DNA from: Kagunavirus LF7074P3
Reading direction: 5' to 3' (one strand)
Length of the DNA stretch: 40,766 bases
Sequence record: OZ035791.1
Numbering within the stretch: position 1 is the stretch's first letter; the number at the start of each line of letters is the position of its first letter. The translations under genes were made by a program, and so were the position numbers. Shown here one piece after another: positions 2,822-33,838 of this stretch. The notes beneath the pieces are model-generated. The model was given only the letters and a program-made list of their open reading frames with translations, did not search any database and was not told the origin of the DNA.

Positions 2822-3898
2822 ATGCTATTAACTTTAGCGCCACAGGGTTTATCTATGAGCTTACTTACATCACTAATCAGCCACCAGATATGGCTGCAAC
2901 GAACCGCATCCGGTGAGGTGAAAGACCTCGCGCCGTTCATTAAGGAGATGCGGGACGAAATCAAACGGCAGGTGCTGCTATTCGGCGACGGCGGTCGCAG
3001 CACTGCGCGACTGAATAAACTGTTACGTGACCTTGAAGAAGCACTGACAGGACTTACTGGTGACTGGCAAACAAAGCTGGCAGAAGACCTCAAGGAACTG
3101 GCGGTGTATGAAGCTGAGTGGAACGTAAAGACCCTGACCGCCAACGTAGATGCGGAATTTGTTACGCCCACCGCCGAACAGGTGTGGGCCGCTGCTGAGT
3201 TTCAGCCATTATCATTGAGTGGCAAGCCAGTTGATTTCACTAAACTGATGTCAGGTTGGGGTGAAACGGAAGTAGCACGTCTTGTAACCGGCGTTAAGAT
3301 GGGCTTTGTACAAGGTCAAACAACACGGCAGATTGTTAAGAATGTAGTAGGCGCCGGTGGGCTGGCTGACATCTCTGAGCGTAACGCCGCTACCGTCATC
3401 CGCACCGCGCTGTCTCACGTGTCCAACGAAGCCCGTAACGAGACGTACCGCCAGAACGACGACATCATCGAGAAGTACGAGTGGGTGTCAACGCTGGACA
3501 GCCGTACCAGTACGATTTGCAGAGCCAGAGACGGAATGACGTGGGAAATTGGTAAAGGGCCGATGCCCCCTGCCCATCCGAACTGCCGGTCGTGCACGGC
3601 TCCGGTAATCAGTTCCGAGTTCGACTTCCTCGATAAAGGCGCAAAACGCGCGGCTAAGGGCGCCGAAGGCGGTACTCAGGTAAGTGCGGACACCACCTAT
3701 TACGAGTTCCTGAAACAACAACCGGCATGGTTTCAGGACCAGGCGCTCGGCCCTGTTCGCGGTAAGATTTTCCGTAACAGCGGTATATCGCCGGAAGAGT
3801 TTCGCGTAATATCTGTAGATGGTTTCGGGAACCCGCTGACGCTTAAGCAGATGGCGGAACTCGATAAACGTGTTGCTGATTATCTGAAAGGGGAATAA
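2822..3898 (+). CDS. head morphogenesis / minor head protein (positional call)
   Basis: 358-aa ORF following portal; start codon uncertain (2822 or 2855); stop overlaps next ATG (TAATG). Confidence 0.55.
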   Translation: MLLTLAPQGLSMSLLTSLISHQIWLQRTASGEVKDLAPFIKEMRDEIKRQVLLFGDGGRSTARLNKLLRDLEEALTGLTGDWQTKLAEDLKELAVYEAEWNVKTLTANVDAEFVTPTAEQVWAAAEFQPLSLSGKPVDFTKLMSGWGETEVARLVTGVKMGFVQGQTTRQIVKNVVGAGGLADISERNAATVIRTALSHVSNEARNETYRQNDDIIEKYEWVSTLDSRTSTICRARDGMTWEIGKGPMPPAHPNCRSCTAPVISSEFDFLDKGAKRAAKGAEGGTQVSADTTYYEFLKQQPAWFQDQALGPVRGKIFRNSGISPEEFRVISVDGFGNPLTLKQMAELDKRVADYLKGE

Positions 3899-4359
3899 TG
3901 ATGGGCTTTTTCAAAGTAACTGACGTACCGTCTCGTCGCGTAGTCCAGTACGCCCGCGTGTCTGGCTCTGGCGAGAACGTGGTGTTTATTGAAGACGAAA
4001 GTGTACTCGGAACACCAGTGGACGATATGCCGTTTGCGGACAAGACCGGTATTGCGCTGCCAGCGGCAGGTATGCTTTATGAGATTCAGTACCTGGCGGA
4101 TGCTGGTGATGTGTATTTCTCCGTACAACCGCAGGACGCTGAACTGGCAGACGGCAGCGCAAATATCGCTGTCGAAGTTAAGGCGGGCAAAGCACCATAT
4201 GCGCTGACCTGGTACAAAGACGGGAAGGAAGTGGTAAACGCCCCGGAAGAGGCTCTGTCTCTGACGGTTAACGCAGTTGGTGAATACTTCGTTAAAGTCA
4301 CTGATGCCGATGGTATAGAGGCCGTAAGTAAAGCAGCGAAGGTTACTAAGCCAGAATAA
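3898..4359 (+). CDS. structural protein with Ig-like C-terminal domain (putative head decoration)
   Basis: 153-aa ORF; C-terminal beta-rich segment ...PYALTWYKDGKEVVN...EYFVKVTDADGIE resembles Ig-like fold; followed by strong terminator. Confidence 0.45.
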   Translation: MMGFFKVTDVPSRRVVQYARVSGSGENVVFIEDESVLGTPVDDMPFADKTGIALPAAGMLYEIQYLADAGDVYFSVQPQDAELADGSANIAVEVKAGKAPYALTWYKDGKEVVNAPEEALSLTVNAVGEYFVKVTDADGIEAVSKAAKVTKPE

Positions 4360-4363
4360 ACTG

Positions 4364-4385
4364 AAGCCCCGAAAGGGGCTTTTTA
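4364..4385 (+). terminator. rho-independent terminator
   Basis: AGCCCC-GAAA-GGGGCT hairpin + TTTTT immediately after 3898..4359. Confidence 0.8.
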
Positions 4386-4448
4386 GTGCCTGTGATTATT
4401 CCAGTTATTCCACTCAATTGTAAATGTTGGAATAAACTATTCGAATAG

Positions 4449-4477
4449 TTGACTTTTCACCAAAAATGTGCTAAGCT
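4449..4477 (+). promoter_or_regulatory. sigma70-like promoter (TTGACT-N17-TAAGCT with TGn extended -10)
   Basis: TTGACT 4449-4454, 17-nt spacer, TGcTAAGCT; abutted upstream by perfect palindrome CTATTCGAATAG (4437-4448). Confidence 0.5.
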
Positions 4478-4654
4478 CCACCTGAGCTTGTGAAGTATGA
4501 ACAAGCGACCGCGGCGCGGGCAGGTAACGGAGCGGGACGTAAGTCCTGAGTGTAGTTACGCTGACGCGTTCGGAAGGGCCATACTCTATTGCTTGTGTAA
4601 AAAGTAACTGGTTTACTGAGATTACGCCGTTTCTATGTTTAAATGATAAGGACT

Positions 4655-4681
4655 AGCGCCCCGCTTTAAGGCGGGGCTTTA
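4655..4681 (+). terminator. weak terminator / attenuator hairpin
   Basis: GCCCCGC-TTTAAG-GCGGGGC hairpin followed by only TTT; lies 20 nt before Rz start. Confidence 0.45.
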
Positions 4682-4701
4682 CTTATCGAGAAAGGGGAAA
4701 C

Positions 4702-5088
4702 ATGAATCTTAAAGCAACTGTCGTAGCGGGAGCATGTTTCATCATCCTGGCTTACGCACACGGCATCTACCAGTATCGCAGCGGCTGGAACGGAGGCCGG
4801 GCGAATCTCGTTTCGCAGCAACAGCAGAAAGCACAGGCTGAGTTAGCTAAGAAAACACAACGGCAGCGGCAGGATGAATCGAAGGCCGCCGCCGCTGATA
4901 ACGAAGGCAAGACGAAATCAGAGGTAATCACCCGTGAAGTCGTTAAGTACATTAAAACGCCTGGCCGCAGCGTGTGCACTTTTGACCCTGAGCGCGTGCA
5001 GCTCAAGTCCCGCGCCGTCGCAAACGCCAATTCCATCCCCGGATACGACGATGATGCAGCCGCCGTGCAAACTGGCACTGCCAAGTAA
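4702..5088 (+). CDS. Rz: Rz-like inner-membrane spanin (i-spanin)
   Basis: 128-aa ORF: N-terminal hydrophobic TMD (VVAGACFIILAYA), charged coiled-coil-like periplasmic domain; contains overlapping lipoprotein ORF in +1 frame; RBS AAAGGGG. Confidence 0.75.
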   Translation: MNLKATVVAGACFIILAYAHGIYQYRSGWNGGRANLVSQQQQKAQAELAKKTQRQRQDESKAAAADNEGKTKSEVITREVVKYIKTPGRSVCTFDPERVQLKSRAVANANSIPGYDDDAAAVQTGTAK

Positions 5089-5197
5089 CGACGCGGACGA
5101 GGATTTAGCTATTGACGTCCAGAACGCAGAATGTGTACGGCAACTGAGACTTAAAGTGTTCATGTTGCAGGATTACGTGAGGAATATTCTGGAATAG
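4934..5197 (+). CDS. Rz1: Rz1-like outer-membrane lipoprotein spanin (o-spanin)
   Basis: 87-aa ORF (GTG start) beginning inside Rz and extending past its stop; signal peptide with lipobox LSAC, Pro-rich mature region SPAPSQTPIPSP. Confidence 0.8.
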   Translation: MKSLSTLKRLAAACALLTLSACSSSPAPSQTPIPSPDTTMMQPPCKLALPSNDADEDLAIDVQNAECVRQLRLKVFMLQDYVRNILE

Positions 5198-5226
5198 TTG
5201 CCTTGTATGTTGGAATAATTTATTCT
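5198..5226 (+). promoter_or_regulatory. candidate promoter for scaffold/capsid genes (TTGCCT-N17-TATTCT)
   Basis: Hexamers with 17-nt spacer; overlaps 19-bp repeat ATGTTGGAATAAtttATTC (5207-5225). Confidence 0.3.
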
Positions 5227-5276
5227 TGACATGTAAATCCGGGTGGCCCGGATTCCAACGTCCAGGGGACATACTG

Positions 5277-5903
5277 ATGAGCGAAGAAGTGAAAGACGAA
5301 ACTATCGAACAACAAGAGACTAAGACCACGTTTACCAAAGAAGAAGTTGACGCGCTGGTATCCGGTCTTAAAGCTAACAACGAGAAACTCTTGTCTGAAA
5401 AGAAAGCTGCCGCCGCTGCCGCGAAAGAAGCCGCAGATGCGAAGCTGAAAGCCGAACAGGAACGCGCAAAACAGAACGGCGAACTTGAGGCATTCGAGAA
5501 AACGTTGCGCAGTCAGTATGAGCCAGTACTCGCCGAGAAAGACGGTAAGATTAGCAAAATGGCTGAGCGTATCCTCGGCGCAGAACGTAAATCAGTTATC
5601 AGCCAGTTGTCTGGCATGTTGATTGATGCGAGCGCAGCGGATATTATCGCTATGATGGTCAAGACCGAATTTGACGGCGATGACGTTGTGACCAAGTTCA
5701 CAGGTGCAGATGGTAATGTCATCACCACCGACGCAGAGCAATTTAAAAAGTATCTGCGTGAGCACAAAGCATTTTCGCATCTGATTAAAGCAGATGCAGC
5801 AACCGGCGGCGGGGCTTCCGGTAACAAAAATTCTACTGGCGGGGCCGGTGGTGCGGACGTAATCCAGCAAAAACTTAACGCCAAATACGGCAAACGAGGA
5901 TAA
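5277..5903 (+). CDS. head scaffolding protein (putative)
   Basis: ATG 5277 with RBS AGGGGA; Ala/Glu/Lys-rich coiled-coil-like 208-aa protein directly upstream of capsid gene. Confidence 0.6.
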   Translation: MSEEVKDETIEQQETKTTFTKEEVDALVSGLKANNEKLLSEKKAAAAAAKEAADAKLKAEQERAKQNGELEAFEKTLRSQYEPVLAEKDGKISKMAERILGAERKSVISQLSGMLIDASAADIIAMMVKTEFDGDDVVTKFTGADGNVITTDAEQFKKYLREHKAFSHLIKADAATGGGASGNKNSTGGAGGADVIQQKLNAKYGKRG

Positions 5904-5909: not shown

Positions 5910-6878
5910 ATGTCTCTGTCAGATATGAAGGTTTATAACGACGATATCGTCGGTACCACTATCGAACTGCTTGGCCAGAAAACTGACCAGTTTAACGCAG
6001 CCTCCGGTGGCGCAATTGTACTGTCTACCGCTTCATGGCGCGGTGACTTCTCCCGTGAGTCTTTCTTTAACCAGATTGCCTCCGCTAAACGCCGCGTTGA
6101 CCGTTACGCCGATATCGCGTCTCAGGCAGCTACCGCGCTGACTCAGGGCGAGCATGTAGGCGTTAAAGTCGCTGGCGGCTTCGGACCGGTACTGTTCGAG
6201 CCTGCGCAAATGACCTGGCTGAACGAAGACCCGGCGAGCGCGATTCGTGCTATCTCCGAAGGGTTCTCTGACGCACTGTTAGCTGACCAGCTTAACACCG
6301 CTGTTGGTGCCGCCGTTGCCGCGGTATCAGGTCAGACTGCACTGGTTAACGATGTATCCGCGACCGCTGGCTTGACCCTGAACGTGCTGAACAACAGCCA
6401 CGCTAAATTCGGCGACCAGTCTCAGTTGTTGGTCACTGACATCATGACCGGCGCGGCCTACCACACTCTGGTGGACAAAGCGCTGACCAACGCAAACCAG
6501 TTGTTCGTTGCTGGCAACGTTATGGTTGTCGATGTTCTCGGCAAGCGTTACGTAATCTCTGACATTCCTGCGCTGTACGAGGCCGGTACTCCGAACAAGA
6601 CTAAGGTCCTGTCCGTAGTTGCAAACGGCATCATCGTTGATAATGCTTCTGACATTATCAGCAACATTGACACCAGCAACGGTAACACCCGCATCCAGAC
6701 CACCTGGCAGGCGGACTACAGCTTCGGCCTGAAACTGAAAGGCTACAGCTGGGACGTTACCAACGGCGGTAAATCTCCGCTGGACGCAGAACTGTTCACC
6801 GCGACTAACTGGGACAAAGCTGTTGCCGAGAACAAGCACACCCTCGGTACTCTGGCAATCGCCGACGCAGACCTGTAA
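5910..6878 (+). CDS. major capsid protein (positional call)
   Basis: 322-aa ORF after scaffold, followed by strong terminator; typical late-operon position. Confidence 0.65.
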   Translation: MSLSDMKVYNDDIVGTTIELLGQKTDQFNAASGGAIVLSTASWRGDFSRESFFNQIASAKRRVDRYADIASQAATALTQGEHVGVKVAGGFGPVLFEPAQMTWLNEDPASAIRAISEGFSDALLADQLNTAVGAAVAAVSGQTALVNDVSATAGLTLNVLNNSHAKFGDQSQLLVTDIMTGAAYHTLVDKALTNANQLFVAGNVMVVDVLGKRYVISDIPALYEAGTPNKTKVLSVVANGIIVDNASDIISNIDTSNGNTRIQTTWQADYSFGLKLKGYSWDVTNGGKSPLDAELFTATNWDKAVAENKHTLGTLAIADADL

Positions 6879-6897: not shown

Positions 6898-6919
6898 AAA
6901 GGGGCTTCGGCCCCTTTTT
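6898..6919. terminator. rho-independent terminator
   Basis: GGGGC-TTCG-GCCCC hairpin flanked by A-run upstream and TTTTT downstream. Confidence 0.8.
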
Positions 6920-6935
6920 ACTAGGAGAAATTAAA

Positions 6936-21054: not shown

Positions 21055-23082
21055 ATGTCAAGCGGATGCGGTGACGTTCTAAGCCTGGCGGATTTGCAAA
21101 CCGCCAAGAAGCACCAGATTTTCGAAGCCGAAGTTATCACCGGTAAATCCGGTGGTGTTGCTGGTGGCGCTGATATCGATTACGCGACAAATCAGGTTAC
21201 CGGGCAGACACAGAAGACGCTTCCGGCCGTGTTGCGCGATGCAGGTTTTTCTCCTGTATCGTGGGACTTTTCCACCGGCGGTACGTTAACAGTTAATGAC
21301 CGCGACAAAGTGGTGTATGACCCTGTAAGCAAGACGTGGTACTCGTATGCGGGTACGTTGCCGGTTGTTGTCCCCGCATCGTTTAACCCGGTTGGTAACT
21401 TTAACTGGAAGCCGCAGACCGACCCGAATTTACGCTCAGAGCTAGAATCTTCACAAGGCGCTTCGCTTATTGGGGTTTCCCCATCAGGAAATGTACAATC
21501 GGGGCTAGACTTCATAAACGATGGTCTGTATTACGTTACACCGGAGCAATACGGCGCTATTGGTGACGGGGTACTACATCCGTTATCCGAGTTTTTTGCC
21601 GATTTACCGTCGGCGCAAATCGTGTATCCGTTGGCTACTAGCCTCTCGCAGAGTATTGATTGGGCCGCAATGCAGAAGGCCGACACGGAAGCCCGTGCGT
21701 CTAAGCGGTCCGTACGGGTTCCCGCACAGAAGGTGTATTATTTTTCCTCTCTGGATACCCTGATGTTAGATATCAATAGTTGTTTTATCGGAGGACCGCA
21801 GAGCGACCACTTCAACGGCACCATGATTAAGAAGGATAAACCACCGGCATCCGACGCCACTAACATCGGCGACATCTGCATAGTCAAAGTCAAGAAAGCT
21901 TCTGATACAGCGTCTACTAACGGATTTGTTAATGGTGTAGTGTTCCAAGGATTTAGCTTAGAATGGGCTAACGTTGTATGGGAAACTCCTCTTCAGGGAG
22001 ACCTGTCCATCTGCTTACACATGAATGACGCTATTAAAGCTAAAGTGGATGTAAGCGTATGGGGTGGCGAATTCGGGGTTTACGGTTACGGATGCTGGGG
22101 GATGGTCGGCACTATCCGCGTGCTTAGTTGCCATAAAGGTATTTATATCGACCCGGTCGCAGCAACTCCTGAACATCCCACCTCAGTGGGTTCAACAGGT
22201 TCAACAACGTCCTTTGATTTACGCGTGGAGATTGGCGGAACGGTTTACCCTATCTATCTGGATAAATGTCAATATAGCCGCTTTCGCGGGTATATCGAGG
22301 TTCTAGAAGGGTCAATATGGGACCAGACAAACGAAACTCCAGTAGCGATTCAGTTAGGTAGTGAGTGTGTCGGTCTTAAGTTCGAGTTGGCACTGGAGTT
22401 CTGGAACGGCGTATATTTCTTATGTGACCTGAACAATAAAGACATCGTTATTGATTCTGAGTTCATCTACACATATACATATAACGACGCTTCCGGCCCT
22501 CGCACCGCGAGACATACCATTGCAAATAAATACGGACAAACGGCGGTAACCATCCCATCGGCTAGTCGCGCGATATTCGCGTTCAATAATGTCGGCAACG
22601 ATATTACTGTTAATGGGATGAATCTATCCGCCTCGGCGCAAAGTTTTAATAACCTGGAGGCGGTGGATAAATATCTATACGCCTCGTTATCAGGTAATCG
22701 TCTGTTCTTTAATGGAGGCAATGTCGCCCCCACCGGTTACCTAAAAGTTACCCGTGCAAACAAAAGGGTTATTGATTTCTTCCGAAACAACGGTCTTGCG
22801 GATGCGTTACGACCCGGAGTTGGTTGGTTTTACGTTGGCGGTGGTATGTATGAAATGTCTACATGGGAACAGTTGACGACCGACGGCACGGGGGCCGCGT
22901 GGTTAGACGCTCCGGCAGGTTTTAACTTACAAACTGTTAACGCTTTCCCTGTGGGTGTCGGTGGGCTGCCTCATGCAATGGGGATTACCGCCGTACCTAC
23001 CGGGACAACTCTACGTTTCATAATCGATAGTGGAGCTAACAGGAATATTGCGTATAAAATGACCGCAGAGCTTATTAACTAA
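21055..23082 (+). CDS. tail fibre / tailspike (receptor-binding) protein
   Basis: 675-aa ORF, last gene of tail module, RBS AAGAGGA, followed by bidirectional terminator. Confidence 0.6.
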   Translation: MSSGCGDVLSLADLQTAKKHQIFEAEVITGKSGGVAGGADIDYATNQVTGQTQKTLPAVLRDAGFSPVSWDFSTGGTLTVNDRDKVVYDPVSKTWYSYAGTLPVVVPASFNPVGNFNWKPQTDPNLRSELESSQGASLIGVSPSGNVQSGLDFINDGLYYVTPEQYGAIGDGVLHPLSEFFADLPSAQIVYPLATSLSQSIDWAAMQKADTEARASKRSVRVPAQKVYYFSSLDTLMLDINSCFIGGPQSDHFNGTMIKKDKPPASDATNIGDICIVKVKKASDTASTNGFVNGVVFQGFSLEWANVVWETPLQGDLSICLHMNDAIKAKVDVSVWGGEFGVYGYGCWGMVGTIRVLSCHKGIYIDPVAATPEHPTSVGSTGSTTSFDLRVEIGGTVYPIYLDKCQYSRFRGYIEVLEGSIWDQTNETPVAIQLGSECVGLKFELALEFWNGVYFLCDLNNKDIVIDSEFIYTYTYNDASGPRTARHTIANKYGQTAVTIPSASRAIFAFNNVGNDITVNGMNLSASAQSFNNLEAVDKYLYASLSGNRLFFNGGNVAPTGYLKVTRANKRVIDFFRNNGLADALRPGVGWFYVGGGMYEMSTWEQLTTDGTGAAWLDAPAGFNLQTVNAFPVGVGGLPHAMGITAVPTGTTLRFIIDSGANRNIAYKMTAELIN

Positions 23083-23085
23083 AAC

Positions 23086-23111
23086 AAAAGGCCCCTTACG
23101 GGGCCTTTCTT
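23086..23111. terminator. bidirectional rho-independent terminator
   Basis: AGGCCCC-TTAC-GGGGCCT hairpin with A-run upstream and T-rich run downstream, between convergent modules. Confidence 0.8.
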
Positions 23112-23189
23112 CACTTCTCTGTTAAACACTCTGCTAACAGCACCGTGTAACCAATCAAATCGATTAACGTGTCGGTCGGGTCGCTGCCG

Positions 23190-23381
23190 TTATCCTTGCT
23201 GCACTGAATGCTGGATACCCCTACAGTTTCGAGAATCTCTTTTGCTTTCATTAATATTCTCCAGTACAAACGACAGTTGCGCATTAGCGGCGTCTCTCTG
23301 TTGCCGTAGTCGTAGAACCTCCTCCTCAAGTTCCTTGATACGTTTTTGCAAAGCTGGAATCGGGGCTATGATGTTCATCAT
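23190..23381 (-). CDS. hypothetical protein (coiled-coil-like)
   Basis: 63-aa ORF with RBS GGAG and ATGA overlap with upstream gene; preferred over overlapping 23111..23329. Confidence 0.4.
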   Translation of the reverse strand: MMNIIAPIPALQKRIKELEEEVLRLRQQRDAANAQLSFVLENINESKRDSRNCRGIQHSVQQG

Positions 23382-23572
23382 TCGAACTCCACAAGGTCGT
23401 TGCCGTTAGCAGAGCCTATCTCAAAATAGCCCGTTTCATCATTGTAACCCGCGAAAAACACAGAGCCGTACTCACTAAAAACACGAAATCCGCCACCAGC
23501 AAACTCCGCTGTATATTCCTTACCTTCTTTGAACACTGACGACATTTCTGAGCTTACGCAAAACAATTTCAT
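23378..23572 (-). CDS. hypothetical protein
   Basis: 64-aa ORF, start/stop coupled to helicase gene. Confidence 0.4.
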   Translation of the reverse strand: MKLFCVSSEMSSVFKEGKEYTAEFAGGGFRVFSEYGSVFFAGYNDETGYFEIGSANGNDLVEFE

Positions 23573-24993
23573 TTCTTACCTCGTCTCTTCATGTAATTAA
23601 GCAACTCTTCCTGTACCGATTTCTTCTCGTCCGTACGCGCGGCAACAACCTCGTCCAGCGTGTCTTTAGCGACTATGTGATACAGGAACACAGGGCGCCC
23701 ATGCCCGGCCTGCTTCTGGCGCACTGGGCCTATACGCTCAACAACCTGCAAATAGTGTTCAAGGTTCCAGCCTTGCGAAATAAACGCCAGATGGTGTCCG
23801 CCGTCCTGTAAATTCAAACCATGCCCGGCTGACGCAGGATGTACACACAAAATCTCTATCTCGCCGCGGTTCCACGCGTCCATCTGCTTATTACCCTTAG
23901 CACCTTTGGCAAACGCCTGTGCCTGCGGGAATCGCTTAAGGATGCGCTCCAGTTCGTGCTTGAACTGATAGGCTACCAGTAATGGCGCACCCTGCAACTC
24001 CTCAACAATGGACTCAAGCGCATCCAGTTTCGTGTCGTGCACCTTCTCCCAGTCTTTCGTTGCTTCGCCATCAGGCCCCGACACATACACGGCACCAGAT
24101 GCAATTTGCAGGCACTTAGACGTCTTCGCCGCAGCGTTAGCCGCTTCAACTTCTCCGCTCTCCAGCTCCGCGAATAGCTTCTCCTCCATATCGAGGTACG
24201 CCTGCCGCGCTTTCTTCGGCAGGTCGATTTCAACCGGTACGATAACAGGCGCTTCACACCCAAACCACTCTGCGGCGTCAATCGTGAGACTAATGTCTTT
24301 CATCTTCTGGTGGATTTCATTATCCGCACCAGGACGCGCATGATACTCCCGCGCCATCGCCGACTTACCTTTTTGCACAGAGTTGAACCAGCGGTCGGTG
24401 AACGCAGTGTACGATGAACCGAGGCGCTCGCCAGCGTCGATAAACCAGTTCTGGCCCCACAGGTCTTTGAGGCCGTTAGGCGACGGTGTGCCCGTCAGAT
24501 TGATGAAACGCTTAACTTTACCGAACGCCACTTTGCTGAGCGCCTTTGCCCGCTTGCTACCACCAGAACGGCTACGGAATGACTTCAGTTTCGTACTCTC
24601 ATCCGCAACGATAACCGTAAAAGGCCAGTCGTCTTTGCCGTAGTAGTCAATCAGCCACTCGATAACTTCGTAGTTGGTACACACCACGTTAGCATCTGAC
24701 TCCAGCGCCGCGATGCGGCGCTTCTCTGAACCTGTTGCATCTACGACACTCAGACATGGGAAGTCCCAACGTGCCTGTTCTGCAGGCCACGTACCGGAAG
24801 CAACACGTAAAGGAGCCAGAATTAACACGCGGTCGTCATCATTAAGTTGGCCGTTGCGGAACAGTCGGTTGAGTACCCACAACGTTGCGGAACTTTTGCC
24901 CGCGCCCATCGAAGCCCAAATATTACAGCGAGGATGCCGCAGCATGAATGAAGTCATGAGCTTTTGGTACTCTCGACGGATAAATTTAGACAT
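23569..24993 (-). CDS. SNF2/DEAD-like superfamily-2 DNA helicase
   Basis: Motifs GAGKS (Walker A), ADEST (DExx), LTGTP; ATG at 24993 (RBS AAGGG) preferred over TTG 24999. Confidence 0.8.
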   Translation of the reverse strand: MSKFIRREYQKLMTSFMLRHPRCNIWASMGAGKSSATLWVLNRLFRNGQLNDDDRVLILAPLRVASGTWPAEQARWDFPCLSVVDATGSEKRRIAALESDANVVCTNYEVIEWLIDYYGKDDWPFTVIVADESTKLKSFRSRSGGSKRAKALSKVAFGKVKRFINLTGTPSPNGLKDLWGQNWFIDAGERLGSSYTAFTDRWFNSVQKGKSAMAREYHARPGADNEIHQKMKDISLTIDAAEWFGCEAPVIVPVEIDLPKKARQAYLDMEEKLFAELESGEVEAANAAAKTSKCLQIASGAVYVSGPDGEATKDWEKVHDTKLDALESIVEELQGAPLLVAYQFKHELERILKRFPQAQAFAKGAKGNKQMDAWNRGEIEILCVHPASAGHGLNLQDGGHHLAFISQGWNLEHYLQVVERIGPVRQKQAGHGRPVFLYHIVAKDTLDEVVAARTDEKKSVQEELLNYMKRRGKK

Positions 24994-24995
24994 AA

Positions 24996-25190
24996 TCAAC
25001 CCTTAATGTAGAGTACCAGCTCTTTACGCCCGAACGCCGTAACGTTACCCGTTACATCTTCGATAACCAGTTTACCGTTTGACTCGACGTACACCGTATC
25101 AACGGCAACAGGGTGGCGGGTCTTAACGTTGAAAATCATATCGCCAGGTACGATGTCACGTGCTGGTTTGCGGTCATATTCGTGTTTCAT
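24996..25190 (-). CDS. hypothetical protein
   Basis: 64-aa ORF with RBS AAGGA, directly downstream of promoter at 25224-25252. Confidence 0.45.
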   Translation of the reverse strand: MKHEYDRKPARDIVPGDMIFNVKTRHPVAVDTVYVESNGKLVIEDVTGNVTAFGRKELVLYIKG

Positions 25191-25220
25191 TTCTCAATTC
25201 CTTATATTGTTGGTGTGTGA

Positions 25221-25505
25221 TTAACTATAATAGCTCGCTATTAGGTCGTCAACCTGTTTAAACGAACCAACGACAAAAACATTCGCACCACGTTTACGCA
25301 TCCGCTCGTGCTCACGTAACTGGTGTGGGTCTGGCTTCGTGTTTTCGTCTTTCTTAACCTCGACGAACAAGACGATGCCGCCGGGTAGAATTACCAGCAG
25401 ATCGGGAGCGCCGGAGCGCCCCTCATAGGAAAGTTTACGAACGAGGCCGCCGATAGCCTCGAATCGCTCTTTTGCGTATTTCTGGATGCGCCCCTCTTTA
25501 GTCAT
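25221..25505 (-). CDS. VRR-NUC domain nuclease (PD-(D/E)XK)
   Basis: 94 aa; ...GAPDLLVILPGGIVLFVEVKK... matches PD..(D/E)xK core of VRR-NUC family. Confidence 0.65.
   Translation of the reverse strand: MTKEGRIQKYAKERFEAIGGLVRKLSYEGRSGAPDLLVILPGGIVLFVEVKKDENTKPDPHQLREHERMRKRGANVFVVGSFKQVDDLIASYYS
25224..25252 (-). promoter_or_regulatory. sigma70-like promoter TTGACG-N17-TATAGT (minus strand) with ATAG-N4-CTATTAG dyad in spacer
   Basis: Minus-strand gTTGACGacctaatagcgagctatTATAGTt; lies inside 3' end of VRR-NUC ORF. Confidence 0.6.
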
Positions 25506-25654
25506 GAGCGCAGAATCCAGGTAATGAAAGCCCCGCCTAGAACGGCGACACCGGCAAACTTAAAGAACAGGCCATAACAGAACATCGCGGCTATTCCTGC
25601 ACCGAGTAGCAGTGCGAGCATGGTTACTATCACCCGAAATACGAACATTGTCAT
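25502..25654 (-). CDS. small membrane protein (50 aa)
   Basis: MTMFVFRVIVTMLALLLGAGIAAMFCYGLFFKFAGVAVLGGAFITWILRS; stop overlaps VRR-NUC ATG (ATGA). Confidence 0.35.
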   Translation of the reverse strand: MTMFVFRVIVTMLALLLGAGIAAMFCYGLFFKFAGVAVLGGAFITWILRS

Positions 25655-25740
25655 AATACGCACCCCTCCCGTTTCGTATGCGCGATACCGCAGCGAGGGC
25701 AGATTCGACAGTCTTCTTCGTAGAACCAGTAAATTTTCAT
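25651..25740 (-). CDS. small Cys-rich protein (29 aa)
   Basis: MKIYWFYEEDCRICPRCGIAHTKREGCVL; ATGA overlaps on both sides. Confidence 0.3.
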   Translation of the reverse strand: MKIYWFYEEDCRICPRCGIAHTKREGCVL

Positions 25741-25868
25741 TCCAGCACCCACAGATAAATTGCGATGAATATACCCAATACGGCTACCATCATGCCGTAT
25801 CGCCCCTCATGACAGTAGACACCCGCGGCGAATCCCGCCAGTACCGCAATAATCAGTTTACTTAGCAT
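25737..25868 (-). CDS. small membrane protein (43 aa)
   Basis: MLSKLIIAVLAGFAAGVYCHEGRYGMMVAVLGIFIAIYLWVLE; ATG lies 10 nt inside the 3' end of the polymerase ORF in another frame. Confidence 0.3.
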   Translation of the reverse strand: MLSKLIIAVLAGFAAGVYCHEGRYGMMVAVLGIFIAIYLWVLE

Positions 25869-28107
25869 ATCGCTTCATCTCCGCACCTTCAGCTACAAGA
25901 GGGAACCCCTCCGCCCATTCCGGTAATTCGCACATCAATCGTTCCAGTTCTGCTACATTATATTCCGGTGAATCTGGTGTCTCGCAGATAATCTCATCGT
26001 GTACGTGAAGTACAATCGGGTAGCCGTTTGCTTCTACGTTCAGCAGGGCATTAGCCAGCAAATCGCGGCACAGCGCCTGAGTGCAGTTTTCCACCAGTTT
26101 GCCTGAGTACGTGTACTGGAATCCCCACTGACGAGTTAACTGGTTCTCCCCCTGATACTTGATGCGCACGTTAGTAGAAACTTTCCCGTCTTCGTCCGTC
26201 TCTTTCGATACGCTCAATCCGACGCCAGGGTAAGACATTACGCGGCCTGACGGCAACGTCATACGCAACCACCAACCAGCGACTTTGTTGCCGTTGTTGT
26301 CTGTCTCCACGTTACGCGAAAACTTAACGCCGCGCGGCCCCGCGGTGAACTCTTTACCGGGATTGCGGATAGCCGCCATAGCTGCGTCTTCAATATCTCG
26401 CCAGAAAGCTACTGTTTCAGGATGAGACTCGCGCCACATACGCTTGATAGCGTCGCAGGTACGCCACACTTTCTTGTCCAGAATATATGATGGTCGGTCA
26501 TCTTTTTCACCGGGACGTGGTGGTCTCTTGGCTTCCTGAATACGCGCCCACTCATAACCCCGCGCGGTAGCGGCCCATATATGGCCTGGGAAAGTACCGT
26601 CCATTGTTTTAGCCATATCAAAAAGGTTTAAGCCGAGGTTTTTAGCAAACTGAACGAAAGCACCGACACCACCTGCATAGCCGAGGCCCAATTCACATGC
26701 TTTACCAATCTGGCGCAGGTCACTACGGCTTTCGAGAATGTAATCAGGGTCCATGCCAAACATCTTACCTGCAGTTACGCAGTAAATATCCAATCCCGCA
26801 CGGAAGGTATCTAGCGCGGTTTCTTCTCCTGCCAGCCATGCCAACCCGCGTCCTTCGACGTTAGAGTAATCGGCGACTACAAACTTATGTCCGGCTTCCG
26901 GTATGATGCAACTACGCACCGTCGACGCCGTTAGCTTGGCTACATCAAAACGGCGATGCGCACGACCTTTAAACAACAGGTCGATTCCGTAGGACAATGG
27001 GTGTGTTACTCTCCACCAGTCCTTCTCTGACATCCAGTCATAACGTACTTTCTTCTTTTTATTCTTCGGGTCGTCGTGATAGTACCCGCGCGCCAGGTTC
27101 TGCGGCTGGAAGCCTTTACCCGCAAACCGTAATGTACGCTTTGCCCCACCGTACTGGATGCAACCGCGGCGTCGGTCGTCCGACGAGCGACCTAACAGCA
27201 GCGGGTTATATTTCGTTGACGCGGTAGACGCGGCCCCGAGTCGCATCTCGATAATCGCGCTGGCGTCGTCCGGTAAATCGTCGTCAGCAAGCAGGTCGTT
27301 AAGCGTTGACTTCTGTGCGTTGTGAATACGGTGCGCCGGTGCGAGTTCACGCAGAATCGGAAGGAAGTCCTTTCCGGTAAGCGAGCCGCCGTATTTACGT
27401 TGGGCTTCTTCCTGTAACTGTGCTTTGTGCTTCTCCACGGCTTCAATCGCGGCTTCCGCCAGTGCCACGTCAACCTTAAACCCGCGGTCATTTATTAACT
27501 GATCCAGTTCCAGTACCCGGTCCTCGAATTCAGAGTTACCCCAACGCGGCAGCTTATAGAAGACTTCACGCATCGCAGTGATGTCGCTCACAGCGTACTT
27601 GATGAACAGAGCCCACTCGTCAGGGTGAGTTTCTGCGGTGTAGCGGCGGATTTTGTAGTTCTTTGGCGTCGGTTTAGAGAAACGCTTAATCAGCGCCTTG
27701 CCGCGTTTATCTTTCGCGTTGTCCGCGGATACACCCAGCACTTCGCACAACGCATCAAGTGAACCAGGCAGCGCGTGACGAAACGCCCAAATCATCGTAT
27801 CAATGGTGTTGCTTACCGGAATATCAAAGCCCCAGCAGTGTTTCATGATGAGCCTGTCGAACATTGAGCCGTTATGCCACACCATCTTGATGCGACTGTT
27901 TGGCTTCACCAGACGGCGTAACGCGCGGTGCAAATCCCCCGGCATGTCGCTGCCGTCTGTGCAATCCCATACCCGCACAGGCTCGTCGTCAAAAGCATAT
28001 GTACAAATAAGGACTTCGGTAGTTGGATGCTCAGCGTAAGCGTAGGAACCAACTTTCTTCAAATCGGCTTCGGAGAATGTTTCAAAGTCTAAGAACAGGT
28101 AACTCAT
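25858..28107 (-). CDS. family A DNA polymerase with 3'-5' exonuclease domain
   Basis: 749 aa; exo motif DFETFS near N-terminus; pol motifs DYSNVEGR (motif A), RQIGKACELGLGYAGG (motif B), HVHDEI (motif C). Confidence 0.9.
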   Translation of the reverse strand: MSYLFLDFETFSEADLKKVGSYAYAEHPTTEVLICTYAFDDEPVRVWDCTDGSDMPGDLHRALRRLVKPNSRIKMVWHNGSMFDRLIMKHCWGFDIPVSNTIDTMIWAFRHALPGSLDALCEVLGVSADNAKDKRGKALIKRFSKPTPKNYKIRRYTAETHPDEWALFIKYAVSDITAMREVFYKLPRWGNSEFEDRVLELDQLINDRGFKVDVALAEAAIEAVEKHKAQLQEEAQRKYGGSLTGKDFLPILRELAPAHRIHNAQKSTLNDLLADDDLPDDASAIIEMRLGAASTASTKYNPLLLGRSSDDRRRGCIQYGGAKRTLRFAGKGFQPQNLARGYYHDDPKNKKKKVRYDWMSEKDWWRVTHPLSYGIDLLFKGRAHRRFDVAKLTASTVRSCIIPEAGHKFVVADYSNVEGRGLAWLAGEETALDTFRAGLDIYCVTAGKMFGMDPDYILESRSDLRQIGKACELGLGYAGGVGAFVQFAKNLGLNLFDMAKTMDGTFPGHIWAATARGYEWARIQEAKRPPRPGEKDDRPSYILDKKVWRTCDAIKRMWRESHPETVAFWRDIEDAAMAAIRNPGKEFTAGPRGVKFSRNVETDNNGNKVAGWWLRMTLPSGRVMSYPGVGLSVSKETDEDGKVSTNVRIKYQGENQLTRQWGFQYTYSGKLVENCTQALCRDLLANALLNVEANGYPIVLHVHDEIICETPDSPEYNVAELERLMCELPEWAEGFPLVAEGAEMKRYAK

Positions 28108-28123
28108 TATTTTCGACCCTTAG

Positions 28124-28147
28124 TAAAAAGGCCCAATGAAGGGCCTT
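28124..28147 (-). terminator. partial terminator/attenuator between SSB-like gene and polymerase
   Basis: Minus-strand AGGCCC-TTCATT-GGGCCT hairpin followed by TTTTA. Confidence 0.4.
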
Positions 28148-28166
28148 AGTTAAATTGATTCAGATA

Positions 28167-28793
28167 TTATCGGCGACGACGTTCGCGGCGCGGTGCTTCA
28201 TCCTCTTCATCGTCTTCAAGGTCATCGACGCTTGCGGCTACTTTAGAACCGCCAAACGCTTTACCTTCACCAACGTATTTAATAGCCAGCAGGTTAACGC
28301 CGAGGACTTTGTATTTCTGGCTGAACCAGATTTCAACGCTTACGTTAGCGACGCAGCCGCTGTAAACCTGTTCACCTTCAATCTGTTCGCCGTCTACGTT
28401 GAAGTCCTGCTCTACCTGAGTCTCACCTTTTTTAGAGGTTACAATCAGCGGCTGCTTCTGTGCCTTCGCTTTGAAGTAGAAGCCTTCTGGGAAGTCTTCA
28501 AACGGGTTATCACGCTCAGCAATGTCTTTAATCGCGCATTTATCCATGTGCTTACCTTCGCCGTAGTTGGACTTCATCCATTTCTCGGCAGCAGCTGCGC
28601 CTAACGCTTCTTCAACTACAGCGTAAACAGTGTCGTAGAGTGCATCGATTTGAGCGTGGTCAGGCGGCAGGATGATAGTCGCGCTATACTGGCCTTTAGT
28701 GATGGAGCCATCATCGTTTTCACGGTCTTTTTCGCGTTCGAATACGTTAACCCATGCAGTGTTTACTTTACGCAGATTCAGTTTAATTCCCAT
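28167..28793 (-). CDS. ssDNA-binding protein-like (DUF2815-like)
   Basis: 208 aa with acidic C-terminal tail DDLEDDEEDEAP followed by RRERRRR; adjacent to Cas4-like nuclease as in known DUF2800/DUF2815 phage pairs (recall-based). Confidence 0.55.
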   Translation of the reverse strand: MGIKLNLRKVNTAWVNVFEREKDRENDDGSITKGQYSATIILPPDHAQIDALYDTVYAVVEEALGAAAAEKWMKSNYGEGKHMDKCAIKDIAERDNPFEDFPEGFYFKAKAQKQPLIVTSKKGETQVEQDFNVDGEQIEGEQVYSGCVANVSVEIWFSQKYKVLGVNLLAIKYVGEGKAFGGSKVAASVDDLEDDEEDEAPRRERRRR

Positions 28794-28847
28794 CTTAATT
28801 TCTCGCTTTTCAGTTTACTCCTGGAAGCTGCCAGGCCAGTGATTAGA

Positions 28848-28876
28848 ACTATAATAGCTAACTATTCAGGTGTCAA
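28848..28876 (-). promoter_or_regulatory. sigma70-like promoter TTGACA-N17-TATAGT (minus strand) with ATAG-N4-CTATTCA dyad
   Basis: Minus-strand gTTGACAcctgaatagttagctatTATAGT; 55 nt upstream of SSB-like gene start. Confidence 0.7.
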
Positions 28877-28880
28877 CAAT

Positions 28881-30122
28881 TTATTCTAAATCTTCTTCAC
28901 TAACCCGATTCCACTCAGGACGTTTGTCGTTTGCCGTTGCGACACATGGCGCTCCTGGCTTACGGGTAATGAAGTCTTTCAGTTCATCTTCCGGTATGAC
29001 TTTAACAGCTTCGGTTGGCGTCATGAGCACTTCTTTAGTCAGCTTGTCGCCGTAGAGTTCTGTTACTTTCTCCGCGTCTTTCCACGCACGGTTGCCCATC
29101 TTACCTTCAACCAGCTTGTACCCAGGAACTTTCTTACCGGAATGCAATGCGGCGGTCATCGCTTTCTCAACCTTGTCGATGTGCTGGCGTAACAGCGGCA
29201 ACTTCTCATACTCAACTACGAGTTGCTCCGTCGTCAGTTCCAGCGCAAAGTCGTCTTCCAGTTCTTCCGCCAGTACAGAATTAACCGTCTTTGTACGTGC
29301 GGCACACTGTTCAGAGAACCGGCACCACTGGCAACCATCGACCGACGGTTTAAAGTCCGACGCTTTCAGGTTCTTCTTTCCACGGAAATAAGCATCAAGC
29401 GCTAACAGTGCCCGTTTCTGTGCGAACTTAGCGAACAGTTCCAGACCTTCGACCGAGATGTCCCACTCTGACGCACCCCCTGCGTACGGCTGGAAGATGA
29501 CCAGGCGCACTACTGTGATGTTATAACGTCTCTTGAGTCGGCGATAAACACCGAGAGCGTAAAGCATAAGCTGCTTGTTTTCTTTCGCTTCGACACGATG
29601 CCGTCCTGTTTTAAGGTCGCCGATAATTAGCATGTGCTCATCGGTGTTAGCCAGTTCCTGAATGGCAACAAGGTCAGCGGTTCCGAACGTCTCAACGCCT
29701 TCATATCCCGGATGCAGCACCTCAGTAAGATTGACGCGCATTTCCAGCTTGGCATAAGTCGCTACGTCTATAATCGCTTTGCAGTAGTCGGTGTACTTGC
29801 GCACCTGCTCAATCATGTCCGCCGTGATTAGTACAGCGCCTTTCATCTGACTAATTAGCGCCTTAATCTGGCCTTTACCCTCGTCCAGCACGTAAGCGCC
29901 GACTTCACGCTCTAGCGGCAGTGCATTGCCGCGGATATAGGCGTTGAGATGTACCTCAGCTATGGTGTGCATAGCCGTGCCTAATACCGCGGCTTTACCG
30001 GACGTGTTGGGGATATCTTTCTCACAGGCCAGTGATGCGGCGCAGCTTAGCCACTTTTTAGCCCCGGACGGCGATAGTAAAGCGTGTACGTCGTTATTGC
30101 CACCGCGTTCTTTTAGTTTCAT
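28881..30122 (-). CDS. PD-(D/E)XK nuclease, Cas4/RecB-like (DUF2800-like)
   Basis: Motifs GTADLV ... IIGDLKTG ... QLMLYA and C-terminal Cys cluster CQWCRFSEQC; ATG 30122 with RBS GGGAG preferred (track start 30143). Confidence 0.7.
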   Translation of the reverse strand: MKLKERGGNNDVHALLSPSGAKKWLSCAASLACEKDIPNTSGKAAVLGTAMHTIAEVHLNAYIRGNALPLEREVGAYVLDEGKGQIKALISQMKGAVLITADMIEQVRKYTDYCKAIIDVATYAKLEMRVNLTEVLHPGYEGVETFGTADLVAIQELANTDEHMLIIGDLKTGRHRVEAKENKQLMLYALGVYRRLKRRYNITVVRLVIFQPYAGGASEWDISVEGLELFAKFAQKRALLALDAYFRGKKNLKASDFKPSVDGCQWCRFSEQCAARTKTVNSVLAEELEDDFALELTTEQLVVEYEKLPLLRQHIDKVEKAMTAALHSGKKVPGYKLVEGKMGNRAWKDAEKVTELYGDKLTKEVLMTPTEAVKVIPEDELKDFITRKPGAPCVATANDKRPEWNRVSEEDLE

Positions 30123-30277
30123 GCTCTTAAACTCCCACCCCATTTAACTTTACGCGTTTTGCGTTTATATGCGCACGTGTCGCCGCTACGGTTGAATATA
30201 ATCAGCCAAGTCGAGTTGCTTACTCGAAAAGGCTGGTGGCGTTTAATAAAGAGAAGTCGCGCTTTACGGTTCGTCAT
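30119..30277 (-). CDS. small basic protein (52 aa)
   Basis: ATG with AGGAG 8 nt upstream; stop overlaps nuclease ATG (ATGA); not in ORF track. Confidence 0.35.
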   Translation of the reverse strand: MTNRKARLLFIKRHQPFRVSNSTWLIIFNRSGDTCAYKRKTRKVKWGGSLRA

Positions 30278-30317
30278 TCTGTAAACTCCTAAATCCACGC
30301 GAAATCAGAATACATAA

Positions 30318-30596
30318 TTACAAACATGCTCTGTTCTCCCACTGGTCAATTAAATGTCTGGTCTGGTGCTGGCAATGCATGGCCCATCCATACATCGACT
30401 CGAAGACATAAAAGTCAGGCTTGGCAAAAGTCGTGCGCTTAATCTGCGACACATGACGGCCTATATCTTTAGCCCGCGGTACTTTGCCTAAGTACGCCAT
30501 CTCTTCCATCTGGTGTGCACCGGACGGCGCACGCAATAACCATAGCGCCTCTGTGTTATCCCGCCGGTCAACGGCGCGGTATAGTTGGTAAATCAT
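30318..30596 (-). CDS. hypothetical protein
   Basis: 92-aa ORF in leftward operon. Confidence 0.45.
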   Translation of the reverse strand: MIYQLYRAVDRRDNTEALWLLRAPSGAHQMEEMAYLGKVPRAKDIGRHVSQIKRTTFAKPDFYVFESMYGWAMHCQHQTRHLIDQWENRACL

Positions 30597-30639
30597 AATC
30601 CCGACCCTCAGTTAAAGCGGCCCGAAGGCCGCGAGATAA

Positions 30640-31107
30640 TTATTCTTCTTCGAAATACTTGTTCTTGATTGCCGTCAGGCGTTCCAGGTATTCAGCAAGG
30701 TCTTCGTCTTTAATCGCGGCAATCTTCATCTTCTTACCGGTGAACTCTTCCAGCAGTTCATCGGAATCATCGCACGCGGCGTCGCTCGGACCTTCGTTAA
30801 TTGCATCGTCGATAGCCTGAATCTGGTCACGCAGAGACTGGTAATCTACTTCTTCCTTCTCTTCCGGTTCTGGCGTCGGTTCCTCTACTTTAGATTTACG
30901 CGGCTTGCGTTTCGGCTTCTCTTCTTCTGCTGGTTTAGTGTCAACGATGTCTTCACCTTCAACCGGGATTTCTTTTGTTGCTTCTTTTGCAACATCAGGC
31001 TCGGTTGTTGCGGTTTCAGCAACGACAACTTGTTTCGCGCTGTTCGCAGCAATCAGTTCATGGGCTACTACGAAACGTTCCAGTAATTTTAAGAATTGGT
31101 CTAACAT
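30640..31107 (-). CDS. highly acidic hypothetical protein
   Basis: 155 aa, long Glu/Asp-rich stretches with one KRKPRKSK patch; first gene downstream of leftward promoter 31139-31168; RBS GAGGAG. Confidence 0.5.
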   Translation of the reverse strand: MLDQFLKLLERFVVAHELIAANSAKQVVVAETATTEPDVAKEATKEIPVEGEDIVDTKPAEEEKPKRKPRKSKVEEPTPEPEEKEEVDYQSLRDQIQAIDDAINEGPSDAACDDSDELLEEFTGKKMKIAAIKDEDLAEYLERLTAIKNKYFEEE

Positions 31108-31138
31108 TTGTTTCTCTCCTCTCGTTTGGTATGGGTTA

Positions 31139-31168
31139 ACTATAATAGCGAACTATTCATGATGTCAA
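31139..31168 (-). promoter_or_regulatory. sigma70-like promoter TTGACA-N18-TATAGT (minus strand) with ATAG-N4-CTATTCA dyad
   Basis: Minus-strand aTTGACAtcatgaatagttcgctattATAGT. Confidence 0.65.
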
Positions 31169-31173
31169 TGGGC

Positions 31174-31204
31174 TTTTCTAAAATAATTAATATGGTACTA
31201 TTCA
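31174..31204 (+). promoter_or_regulatory. candidate rightward promoter/operator for cro-like gene
   Basis: ATAT-ggta-CTATTCA dyad (31190-31204) with TACTAT -10-like hexamer; -35 poorly defined. Confidence 0.3.
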
Positions 31205-31232
31205 CATATCAACTGACTAAGGAGTAATTGAC

Positions 31233-31448
31233 ATGCAACCATCTGAACTAGGCATCCGTGTAGAGCAACGCCGTAAAGAACTCGGTATCTCCCAGCGCCA
31301 TCTGGCTGTCCTGGCCGGTGTTTCCCAAGGCGCGATTAACCAGCTGGCACTTGGAGTAACTCAGGACGTCCGCCCGGCGACGCTGTTTAAACTGGCGGAA
31401 GTGCTGGAAGTAGACGCCAAGTGGCTGGCGTTCGGTGAAGGGGCTTAA
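31233..31448 (+). CDS. Cro/CI-type (XRE-family) HTH DNA-binding protein
   Basis: 71 aa; ...ELGISQRHLAVLAGVSQGAINQL... HTH; RBS AGGAG; transcribed opposite to surrounding leftward genes. Confidence 0.75.
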   Translation: MQPSELGIRVEQRRKELGISQRHLAVLAGVSQGAINQLALGVTQDVRPATLFKLAEVLEVDAKWLAFGEGA

Positions 31449-31463
31449 CGCCCCTTTCTTTTT
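31439..31463 (+). terminator. rho-independent terminator (rightward only)
   Basis: AGGGGC-TTAAC-GCCCCT hairpin + TTTCTTTTT overlapping cro-like stop. Confidence 0.7.
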
Positions 31464-31465
31464 AC

Positions 31466-33798: not shown

Positions 33799-33838
33799 TG
33801 TATAATCCTTGTGCTTACTTTGATGATTTGTGCTTCGG

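Follow-up and report, generated by a model that had tools for sequence, protein, structure and literature searches.

Here, we describe a structured non-coding RNA element in the genome of Kagunavirus LF7074P3 (sequence record OZ035791.1; 40,766 bases), a complete genome of the subfamily Guernseyvirinae that is referred to below as the window. The element lies between a sigma70-type promoter, designated promoter P1, and the spanin genes Rz and Rz1, and the studied region is identical in the window and in Escherichia phage vB_EcoS_fKuEco01. Exceptional conservation, a covarying fold, a broken reading frame, a wide distribution among related phages and the presence of a paralogue support a transcribed, structured and non-coding element on the plus strand. 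It is most readily explained, in our tentative view and at a little less than an even chance, as a free-standing non-coding RNA gene whose leaky or processed 3' hairpin also makes it the leader that doses Rz/Rz1. An earlier note made from the letters alone (the original prediction) had proposed a promoter-to-terminator unit at 4449-4681 serving either as a small RNA or as a leader with a leaky terminator. The structured non-coding RNA and the hairpin in the path of Rz transcription were both borne out, and either of the two may be the primary reading; the family, the paralogue, the extended outer stem of the hairpin and the exceptional conservation had not been seen at that time.

Distribution and conservation of the RNA family

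Two sequence types of the element and a paralogue were distinguished. Type A was detected by blastn as a 342-nucleotide (nt) region with 95-100% identity in 180 phage records, comprising Kagunavirus and 65 Salmonella phages. Type B, which is approximately 70% identical to type A, was found in Jerseyviruses (269 records, SETP3 and SE2 among them), and 237 of these 269 records showed 95-99% identity. A motif scan of IMG/VR further revealed a paralogue (type C) that some Kagunaviruses carry, among them Shashou, Snoke, SCS44 and fFiEco02. It is located in the early divergent intergenic region, equivalent to 34400-34727 of the window. Type C shares the 5' domain and the GAUU..GCCGU motif, is preceded by a TTGACT-17-TAAGCT promoter of its own, and differs in the P2-P3 arm and the 3' end. 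Type C is followed by a separate promoter (TTGCAC-17-TACTAT) and then by the early rightward genes. Before its 3' hairpin we also noticed a CUCA/CACU repeat, present in 3 to 6 copies (SCS44 = L098, L094, Snoke = L099 and Shashou = L042).

The window itself holds a single copy of the element, and a different promoter-to-terminator RNA occupies the second locus (second unit in Table 1). In this unit, the leader has a long hairpin of sequence GUUGACGAACCCUCCCUGAGGGAUUCGUCAAC, and the terminator is of an extended form, GGGCAGGCUUAAGGCCUGCCCUUU. The unit is similar to type C in its 3' part (UGCCGUAGAUUCGCAACCG); its 5' domain is unrelated, and it was undetected by the covariance model of the 5' domain described below (model R1).

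The RNA is more conserved than its surroundings. Mean identity of the relatives to the window was 0.967 for the RNA (typically 0.98-1.0). The corresponding mean for Rz was 0.908 over all sites and 0.843 at third positions; the scaffold gene averaged 0.70 and the capsid gene 0.65. In one relative (L038) an RNA identity of 0.995 was accompanied by an Rz identity of 0.716. Similarly, two Jerseyviruses with a type-A RNA, FSL SP-101 and SETP13, were 0.75-0.77 identical to the window over the 60% that aligns and reached 0.95-0.98 at 4351-4650, the top value in either comparison; in SETP13 the identity drops to 0.77 exactly at Rz. In SP-101, one interval in the polymerase/SSB region equals the RNA peak, which hinted that RNA type might co-vary with the DNA polymerase/SSB region. 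This idea was refuted by SETP13, which does not share the polymerase/SSB similarity, and by the record counts. No other segment was high in both type-A Jerseyviruses, and no phage gene visibly tracked RNA type in the three genomes compared.

Known RNA families did not account for the element. Rfam 15 (4227 models) gave no match at the gathering threshold over the whole window, the scan thus returning no known family, and even at E <= 10 the best scores within 4340-4720 were 12-17 bits compared with gathering scores of 35-114 (top 16.8 versus 114). No tRNA or tmRNA was found by a dedicated scan of the window. Model R1 was negative at all 80 metagenome loci screened, which had been preselected with an unspecific pattern (ACCGCGG-N45-75-GGAAGGGCC). 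We found no description of the element in the literature on RNA biology of Kagunavirus, Jerseyvirus or Guernseyvirinae, and a Kagunavirus transcriptome paper reported annotated genes only. We regard the element as a new RNA family within a familiar broad class, namely promoter-proximal phage leaders or non-coding RNAs with a terminator.

Structure of the 5' domain

The 5' domain of the predicted RNA consists of a hairpin at the 5' end (H1), a long three-tier arm (helices P1, P2 and P3) and hairpin P4 (Table 1). Model R1 was built from type-A sequences, and alignment to it gave 99-137 bits for type A, 64-84 for type C and 38-46 for type B. In the covariation alignment, which was itself fitted to R1 and should be read with that caveat, standard pairs were present in 92.2% of pair cells versus 29-44% when the partners were slid by 1-3 columns, and double-sided changes were observed in 18 of the 28 pairs; none of 500 shuffles reached the observed values. 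In addition, RNAalifold, run on a plain MAFFT alignment, independently gave helix P1, P3 and the terminator stem. Five helices and the terminator stem show compensatory pairs and G-U/G-C exchanges, and exchanges of the latter kind mark a plus-strand RNA and not duplex DNA. The structured leader envisaged by the original prediction has thus gained a multi-helix 5' domain that is supported by covariation among homologous phages.

Among individual helices, H1 was paired in 97.5% of cells, and the first pair of the long arm (4515-4568) occurs as C-G, U-A and A-U. P4 was paired in only 76% of cells; at its pair 4571-4581, type A has C.A, type B has C-G, and L098 and L099 have U-A. No variation was seen in the junction ACCGCGG, at the internal-loop bases or in the AGG of the P4 loop. 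Two further pairings of the junction are weakly supported. It may close a helix P0 with CGCCGU (4625-4631), which comes from a constrained fold together with one supporting exchange, noted by eye, between G.U (type A) and U-A (type B). CCG (4509-4511) may instead pair with CGG (4571-4573) and extend helix P1, an arrangement proposed by RNAalifold that competes with P4. Past P4, the stretch 4584-4624 has a looser structure, with variation that is not compensated. Two other candidates were rejected: the long helices of the minimum-energy fold (4569-4620) were ruled out by uncompensated variation at 4584-4586 and 4605-4618, and a pairing of the H1 loop with CAUACU (4580-4585) by uncompensated changes at 4584.

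Bare patterns alone would have been a poor guide, with seven terminator-like sites in the window compared with 3.1 +/- 2.1 expected, which is within chance. It is the combination of conservation and covariation, and not the pattern, for which the element was counted as real.

Table 1. Features of the element and its surroundings in the window; transcript limits are predicted
Feature	Coordinates	Strand	Remarks
Head-morphogenesis gene	2822-3898		Upstream of the element
Ig-like gene	3898-4359		Upstream of the element
Canonical terminator	4364-4385		Between Ig-like gene and element
A/T-rich upstream region	4395-4448		Three TGGAATAA copies: 4396-4403 (-), 4405-4412 (-), 4428-4435 (+)
Promoter-like site	4424-4395	-	TTTACA-18-AATAAT with TG; same site in SETP3
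Palindrome ACTATTCGAATAGT	4436-4449		In upstream region
Promoter P1	4449-4477	+	-35 TTGACT 4449-4454; spacer 17 nt; TG 4469-4470; -10 TAAGCT 4472-4477
Predicted RNA (~200 nt)	4484-4687	+	Putative start 7 nt past -10; putative end at or just after hairpin
H1 hairpin	4486-4506	+	GCUUGU-GAAGUAUGA-ACAAGC; 4486-4491 with 4501-4506; begins at +3; double-sided changes in 4/6 pairs
Invariant junction	4507-4514	+	G-ACCGCGG; candidate partner in P0 or P1 extension
Helix P1	4515-4518 with 4565-4568	+	Base of long arm (4515-4568)
Helix P2	4521-4528 with 4555-4563	+	G4560 bulged; double-sided changes in 7/8 pairs
Conserved internal loop	Between P2 and P3	+	GGAGC / UGAGUGUA
Helix P3	4534-4538 with 4543-4547	+	GUAA cap; double-sided changes in 5/5 pairs
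P4 hairpin	4569-4583	+	UUCGG-AAGGG-CCAUA; 4569-4573 with 4579-4583; conserved AGG-containing loop
Variable middle and A/U-rich linker	4584-4644	+	Motifs GAUU(A)CGCCGU and AUGUUUA conserved
Short hairpin	4589-4592 with 4597-4600	+	Type B form UACUG-CUUU-CAGUA
Extended 3' hairpin (17-19 bp)	4645-4687	+	Ends 14 nt before Rz start
Core stem	4658-4677	+	GCCCCGCT-TTAA-GGCGGGGC, then TTTACTTATC
Rz ribosome-binding site	4691-4697	+	AAAGGGG
Rz	4702-5088	+	Pair annotated i-spanin/o-spanin in phage Shashou
Rz1 (embedded)	4934-5197	+	Pair annotated i-spanin/o-spanin in phage Shashou
Scaffold gene	5278-5903		ATG at 5278; downstream of Rz/Rz1
Major capsid gene	5910-6878		Downstream of scaffold
Second unit	34435-34690		TTGAAA-18-TATAAT; leader ~220 nt; folding z -4.64

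Promoter P1 and the predicted start

Promoter P1 is present exactly as the original prediction had it, with an extended -10 element, and is conserved in types A, B (TAGACT-17-TGtTACGCT) and C (TTGACT-17-TGgTAAGCT). Because its -10 hexamer agrees with the consensus at T1, A2 and T6 only, a strict consensus scan omits it; in a position-weighted scan that credits the TG, it ranks third on the plus strand of the genome, after 38531-38559 and 34435-34464. In the relatives, the -35, TG and -10 elements are near-invariant (a single -35 substitution, in L014), and positions 4461, 4462, 4468 and 4471 of the spacer vary. Fixed boxes with a varying spacer are the pattern that would be expected of a working extended -10 promoter. 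Both ends of the transcript are placed from promoter geometry and the hairpin, and we infer them on that basis. With respect to a -10-like pause element in the first transcribed bases, AAGTAT at +10 to +15 fits the pattern NANNAT in types A and C and is absent in type B; this pattern is so permissive that the fit carries little information.

The 3' hairpin and its link to Rz

The hairpin with a short U-tract that had been proposed upstream of Rz is present at 4658-4677, where it forms the core of a longer stem (4645-4687). As RNA, the core reads GCCCCGC(U)/(G)GCGGGGC, the middle UAG/UUA and the outer stem GAUAAG (4645-4650) with CUUAUC (4682-4687). The type B hairpin has the same shape with other bases (UAUACG/CGUAUA, UUAA/UUAG and GCCCGGC/GCCGGGC). 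Four independent compensations were found in the core, in which a C-G pair is replaced by A-U (L001), U-A (L009) or G-C (type B) and a G-C pair by A-U (L083), and in L028 a 3-nt deletion yields a perfect 18-bp stem. A stem of 17-19 bp, kept by compensatory change, is also present in the second unit of the window and in L097.

The 3' side of the hairpin carries a short interrupted U-run (UUUACUUAUC), which is UUU followed by A in type A and UU followed by A in type B, compared with T5 in the canonical terminators of the phage. A terminator scan called the type-A hairpin terminator-like and did not call that of type B. Given this weak U-run, the description of the terminator as leaky is reasonable. 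Moreover, no promoter fits between 4687 and the ribosome-binding site of Rz, so that transcription of Rz must cross the hairpin, and the element is at least a spanin leader.

Coding potential

The original prediction had stated that the region contains no credible open reading frame (ORF). An ORF of 36 amino acids (4497-4607) does exist, and several GenBank records, those of Shashou and fKuEco01 among them, list it as a hypothetical protein, so the statement holds for credibility and not for presence: neither the frame, nor the start, nor a third-position bias is conserved. Single-base indels cut the ORF to 9-17 amino acids in 6 of 37 type-A relatives; frameshifts within it were recorded in L005, L014, L016, L020, L022, L023, L027 and L029; its start is ATC in L029 and L097; the ATG is deleted in type B; and in type C a stop follows 19 codons. 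Variable sites in the ORF number 40 and are distributed as 14, 15 and 11 over codon positions 1, 2 and 3. In the absence of such conservation the ORF is very unlikely to be a gene. A hypothetical protein of 35 amino acids is also annotated antisense to the type-C RNA, on the minus strand of Shashou (37530-37637) and Snoke (632-739), and is probably a spurious call of the same kind.

A model for the function of the RNA

On the reading that we favour, host sigma70 RNA polymerase would initiate at promoter P1 near 4484, and the nascent RNA would fold into H1, the P1-P2-P3 arm, P4 with its AGG loop, a loose A/U-rich middle and the 17-19 bp hairpin. At this hairpin most polymerases would stop, or the long stem would be cut, and a free RNA would result; the fraction reading through would carry the Rz ribosome-binding site, which begins 4 nt past the stem, and the hairpin would in this way set a low spanin dose. 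The element is regarded as a gene in its own right because of its strong promoter, its conserved fold, a constraint above that of its neighbours, and a duplicate that has a separate downstream promoter.

The conserved 5' domain would serve as a docking surface, and according to this model its partner is most likely a conserved host component rather than a phage protein. Pfam analysis of 20 small ORFs revealed no Q- or N-type antiterminator and only HTH_17, HTH_3, DUF551, DUF7438, DUF2737 and NinH, and no antiterminator is annotated in Shashou, SETP3 or SETP13, a scope of Pfam domains and annotations that leaves room for a novel protein. This result, together with the lack of a co-varying phage gene, points to a host partner. 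AUGUUUA and the AAGGG loop are conserved and represent candidate single-stranded seeds, with complementarity in the phage genome at chance level; the long U tail at the 3' end that characterizes Hfq-type small RNAs was not found (UUU/UU). A bolder version, which we consider unlikely as a whole, is that the 5' domain represents a structural class of RNA not seen before and acts directly on a conserved host machine, with types A and B as discrete, non-intergrading specificities that move between genera as a promoter-plus-RNA cassette. Such an RNA could possibly be a protein-independent modifier of RNA polymerase (put-like, unrelated in sequence) or a decoy or sponge for a host factor.

Several observations weigh against the favoured model. 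The type B hairpin has no usable U-run, so the type B RNA may be mainly a 5' untranslated region (UTR) unless processing releases it. The folding z-score of the whole RNA is only -1.68. Complementarity of k-mers within the phage genome was at chance level, including 4512-4520/5009-5017 and 4553-4563/34741-34751, and blastn revealed no host homologue in 5,426 E. coli genomes. The search for a co-varying phage gene spans just three genomes. In addition, cassette exchange or co-conversion by a homing endonuclease beside 4397 could partly inflate the identity values, and start, end and termination efficiency are all predictions from the letters.

Alternative explanations

An antiterminator acting in cis, of the type known from put sites of phage HK022, is one alternative that we judge unlikely. 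Here the two-hairpin domain would bind its own RNA polymerase so that neither the 3' hairpin nor later terminators (e.g. 6903-6922) would stop the enzyme, with no phage protein involved. As in putL, a strong promoter is followed almost at once by the domain, which begins at +3, and then by terminators (PMC9378689), and some phages carry two paralogous copies that head two rightward units, like putL and putR, promoter and domain having been duplicated together. A host RNA polymerase partner would also fit the lack of an antiterminator protein domain and of any phage gene that tracks RNA type, and gene 6936 begins 14 nt past a strong terminator with no promoter between them. On the other hand, model R1 finds nothing at E <= 1 in the putL/putR regions of HK022, the domain has approximately 100 nt in three tiers and not approximately 70 nt, and the window has one copy, the 5' domain of its other early leader being unrelated. 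A constitutive antiterminator straight before its own conserved terminator would serve no obvious purpose; both the paralogue and the second unit of the window precede a separate promoter, and the promoter-like site at 5190-5218 could by itself serve the scaffold and capsid genes. Somewhat less probable still is a passive 5' UTR, in which H1 would shield the 5' end, the fold would bar Rho and RNase E, the 3' stem would be a processing or stabilising site of the RNase III type, and the RNA would be inactive. H1 indeed begins 2 nt from the predicted 5' end, types A and B preserve the 17-19 bp stem despite their differing sequences, the stem is perfect in L028, type B lacks a terminator-grade U-run, and a comparable covarying hairpin (5236-5254) precedes the scaffold gene. 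However, stabiliser hairpins need no near-invariant junctions and loops (ACCGCGG, GAGUGUA and AAGGG), the constraint exceeds that of neighbouring synonymous sites, and a whole-domain duplicate at a second locus suggests that the function is specific.

The structure could also be real and its conservation overstated, which we consider improbable: a cassette beside a homing-endonuclease site might have been homogenised by gene conversion or mosaic recombination. Consistent with this, a minus-strand endonuclease VII gene lies directly left of the 4397 point in SETP13, about 26 of 39 IMG/VR relatives have replaced sequence at that junction, and type A crosses the genus boundary with sharp break-points, as at Rz in SETP13. 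Nevertheless, RNA identity is equal in relatives with and without replaced upstream sequence, type B is just as uniform, the element of SETP3 has no endonuclease gene next to it, many changes within types are compensatory, and identity steps down at module borders with no gradient. We give the least weight to a last group, comprising a riboswitch-like leader, a DNA-level element (a transcription-primed origin or a pac site) and a real gene for the 36-amino-acid protein, which together appear very improbable. A multi-helix junction with invariant nucleotides would suit a riboswitch, and UUCGG has two exclusive pairings (P4 or the P1 extension); by inspection, however, no antiterminator pairing with the terminator arm is common to types A and B, the alternative between P1 extension and P4 leaves the terminator uninvolved, and no Rfam riboswitch matched. 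For an origin one could cite the promoter followed by an A/T-rich stretch, as in T7-type origins, and the location of the paralogue in the divergent early intergenic region; the strand-specific exchanges of G-U and G-C speak against any DNA element. Annotation of the ORF in some records favours the protein gene, which is contradicted by its disruption in many members of the family.

Genome context

The element sits within the block of head genes. When distant homologues were sought by anchoring on the head-morphogenesis protein, Vibrio phage 1.162.O (3305-5142) was found to carry its scaffold gene 90 nt after the head-morphogenesis gene, with no RNA/Rz island between them. Since this relative lacks the block, the Ig-like gene, the RNA and Rz/Rz1 form an insertion in the head operon that is specific to Guernseyvirinae. 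In Salmonella phage SE40 (3640-4300), the Ig-like gene is fused straight to mid-Rz and the promoter-RNA region is absent, which is probably a deletion or an assembly artefact of this 28.9-kb 'complete' genome.

On the left, the conserved block starts at approximately 4397, and the sequence beyond it is replaced in the same 26 or so of the 39 IMG/VR relatives. With the endonuclease VII gene of SETP13 (5447-5872, minus strand) immediately adjacent, this junction looks like a hotspot for a free-standing nuclease of the homing type. Five of the six genomic copies of TGGAATAR cluster upstream of promoter P1 (4396-4435) and of the scaffold gene (5190-5218). They resemble extended -10 elements (TGgAATAAT). 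One of them is part of the minus-strand promoter-like site at 4424-4395, and another forms the plus-strand promoter-like site at 5190-5218, which could drive the scaffold and capsid genes. The three best minus-strand promoter-like sites (28876-28848, 31168-31139 and 25252-25224) have TTGAC(A/G)-17/18-TATAGT after TAT and are probably a co-regulated promoter set for replication genes.

To the right of Rz1, the hairpin at 5236-5254 before the scaffold start (AAUCCGGG-UGGC-CCGGAUU) has a counterpart in phage SE40 (ACACCGGG-UGGC-CCGGUGU) in which the changes are compensatory; as it lacks a U-run, it may stabilise the 5' end of the scaffold/capsid mRNA or mark a place where this mRNA is processed. 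A strong terminator, AAAGGGGCUUCGGCCCCUUUUU (6903-6922), follows the capsid gene, and the next gene starts with GTG at 6936, 14 nt on. As no promoter lies between them, the head-completion and tail genes need read-through.

Significance and comparison with known systems

Kagunaviruses and Jerseyviruses are widely isolated and serve as therapeutic or biocontrol phages against E. coli K1, extraintestinal pathogenic E. coli (ExPEC) and Salmonella, and their transcriptional programme is essentially uncharacterised. The most conserved stretch of these genomes is at present either blank or mis-annotated as a hypothetical protein. With its genuine covariation, the element would make a clean new RNA family for Rfam. 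Should it prove to be a regulatory RNA, it would give access to the control of lysis and late-gene timing in a virulent phage that depends on host RNA polymerase; should it modify the polymerase without a protein or act as a decoy for a host factor, the class now represented by HK022 put and very few others would grow.

With regard to known systems, the closest layout is that of lambda pR'-6S-tR' and of StxS, where an apparently constitutive sigma70 promoter, an untranslated RNA of about 200 nt (194 nt for lambda 6S RNA) and a terminator also stand directly before lysis genes. This likeness is one of layout only, and no similarity of sequence or covariance model was found. Unlike pR'-6S-tR', the element has no Q-family antiterminator domain detected in its genome, its RNA is far more structured and conserved, only spanin genes and not holin and endolysin genes lie downstream, and the phage is a virulent siphovirus rather than a temperate lambdoid phage. 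T7 early mRNAs and the lambda N leader are examples of phage leaders and 3' hairpins processed by RNase III. The long imperfect stem of 17-19 bp before the next ribosome-binding site, with its compensatory change, resembles such stems and is a candidate cleavage site, although it is shorter than the classic two helical turns. In Stx phages, the short RNA StxS is reported to be itself a regulator and to be made when read-through fails (PMC7547250). The putL and putR RNAs of HK022 are structured RNAs placed right after a strong promoter, with consecutive stem-loops, and require no dedicated phage protein (PMC9378689). The element shares with them the position just after a strong promoter and before terminators (4658-4677 and 6903-6922) and the presence of two copies in some genomes; it differs in size (approximately 100 nt versus approximately 70 nt) and architecture, and a search with model R1 at E <= 1 came up empty across HK022 22000-34000, the stretch that includes putL.

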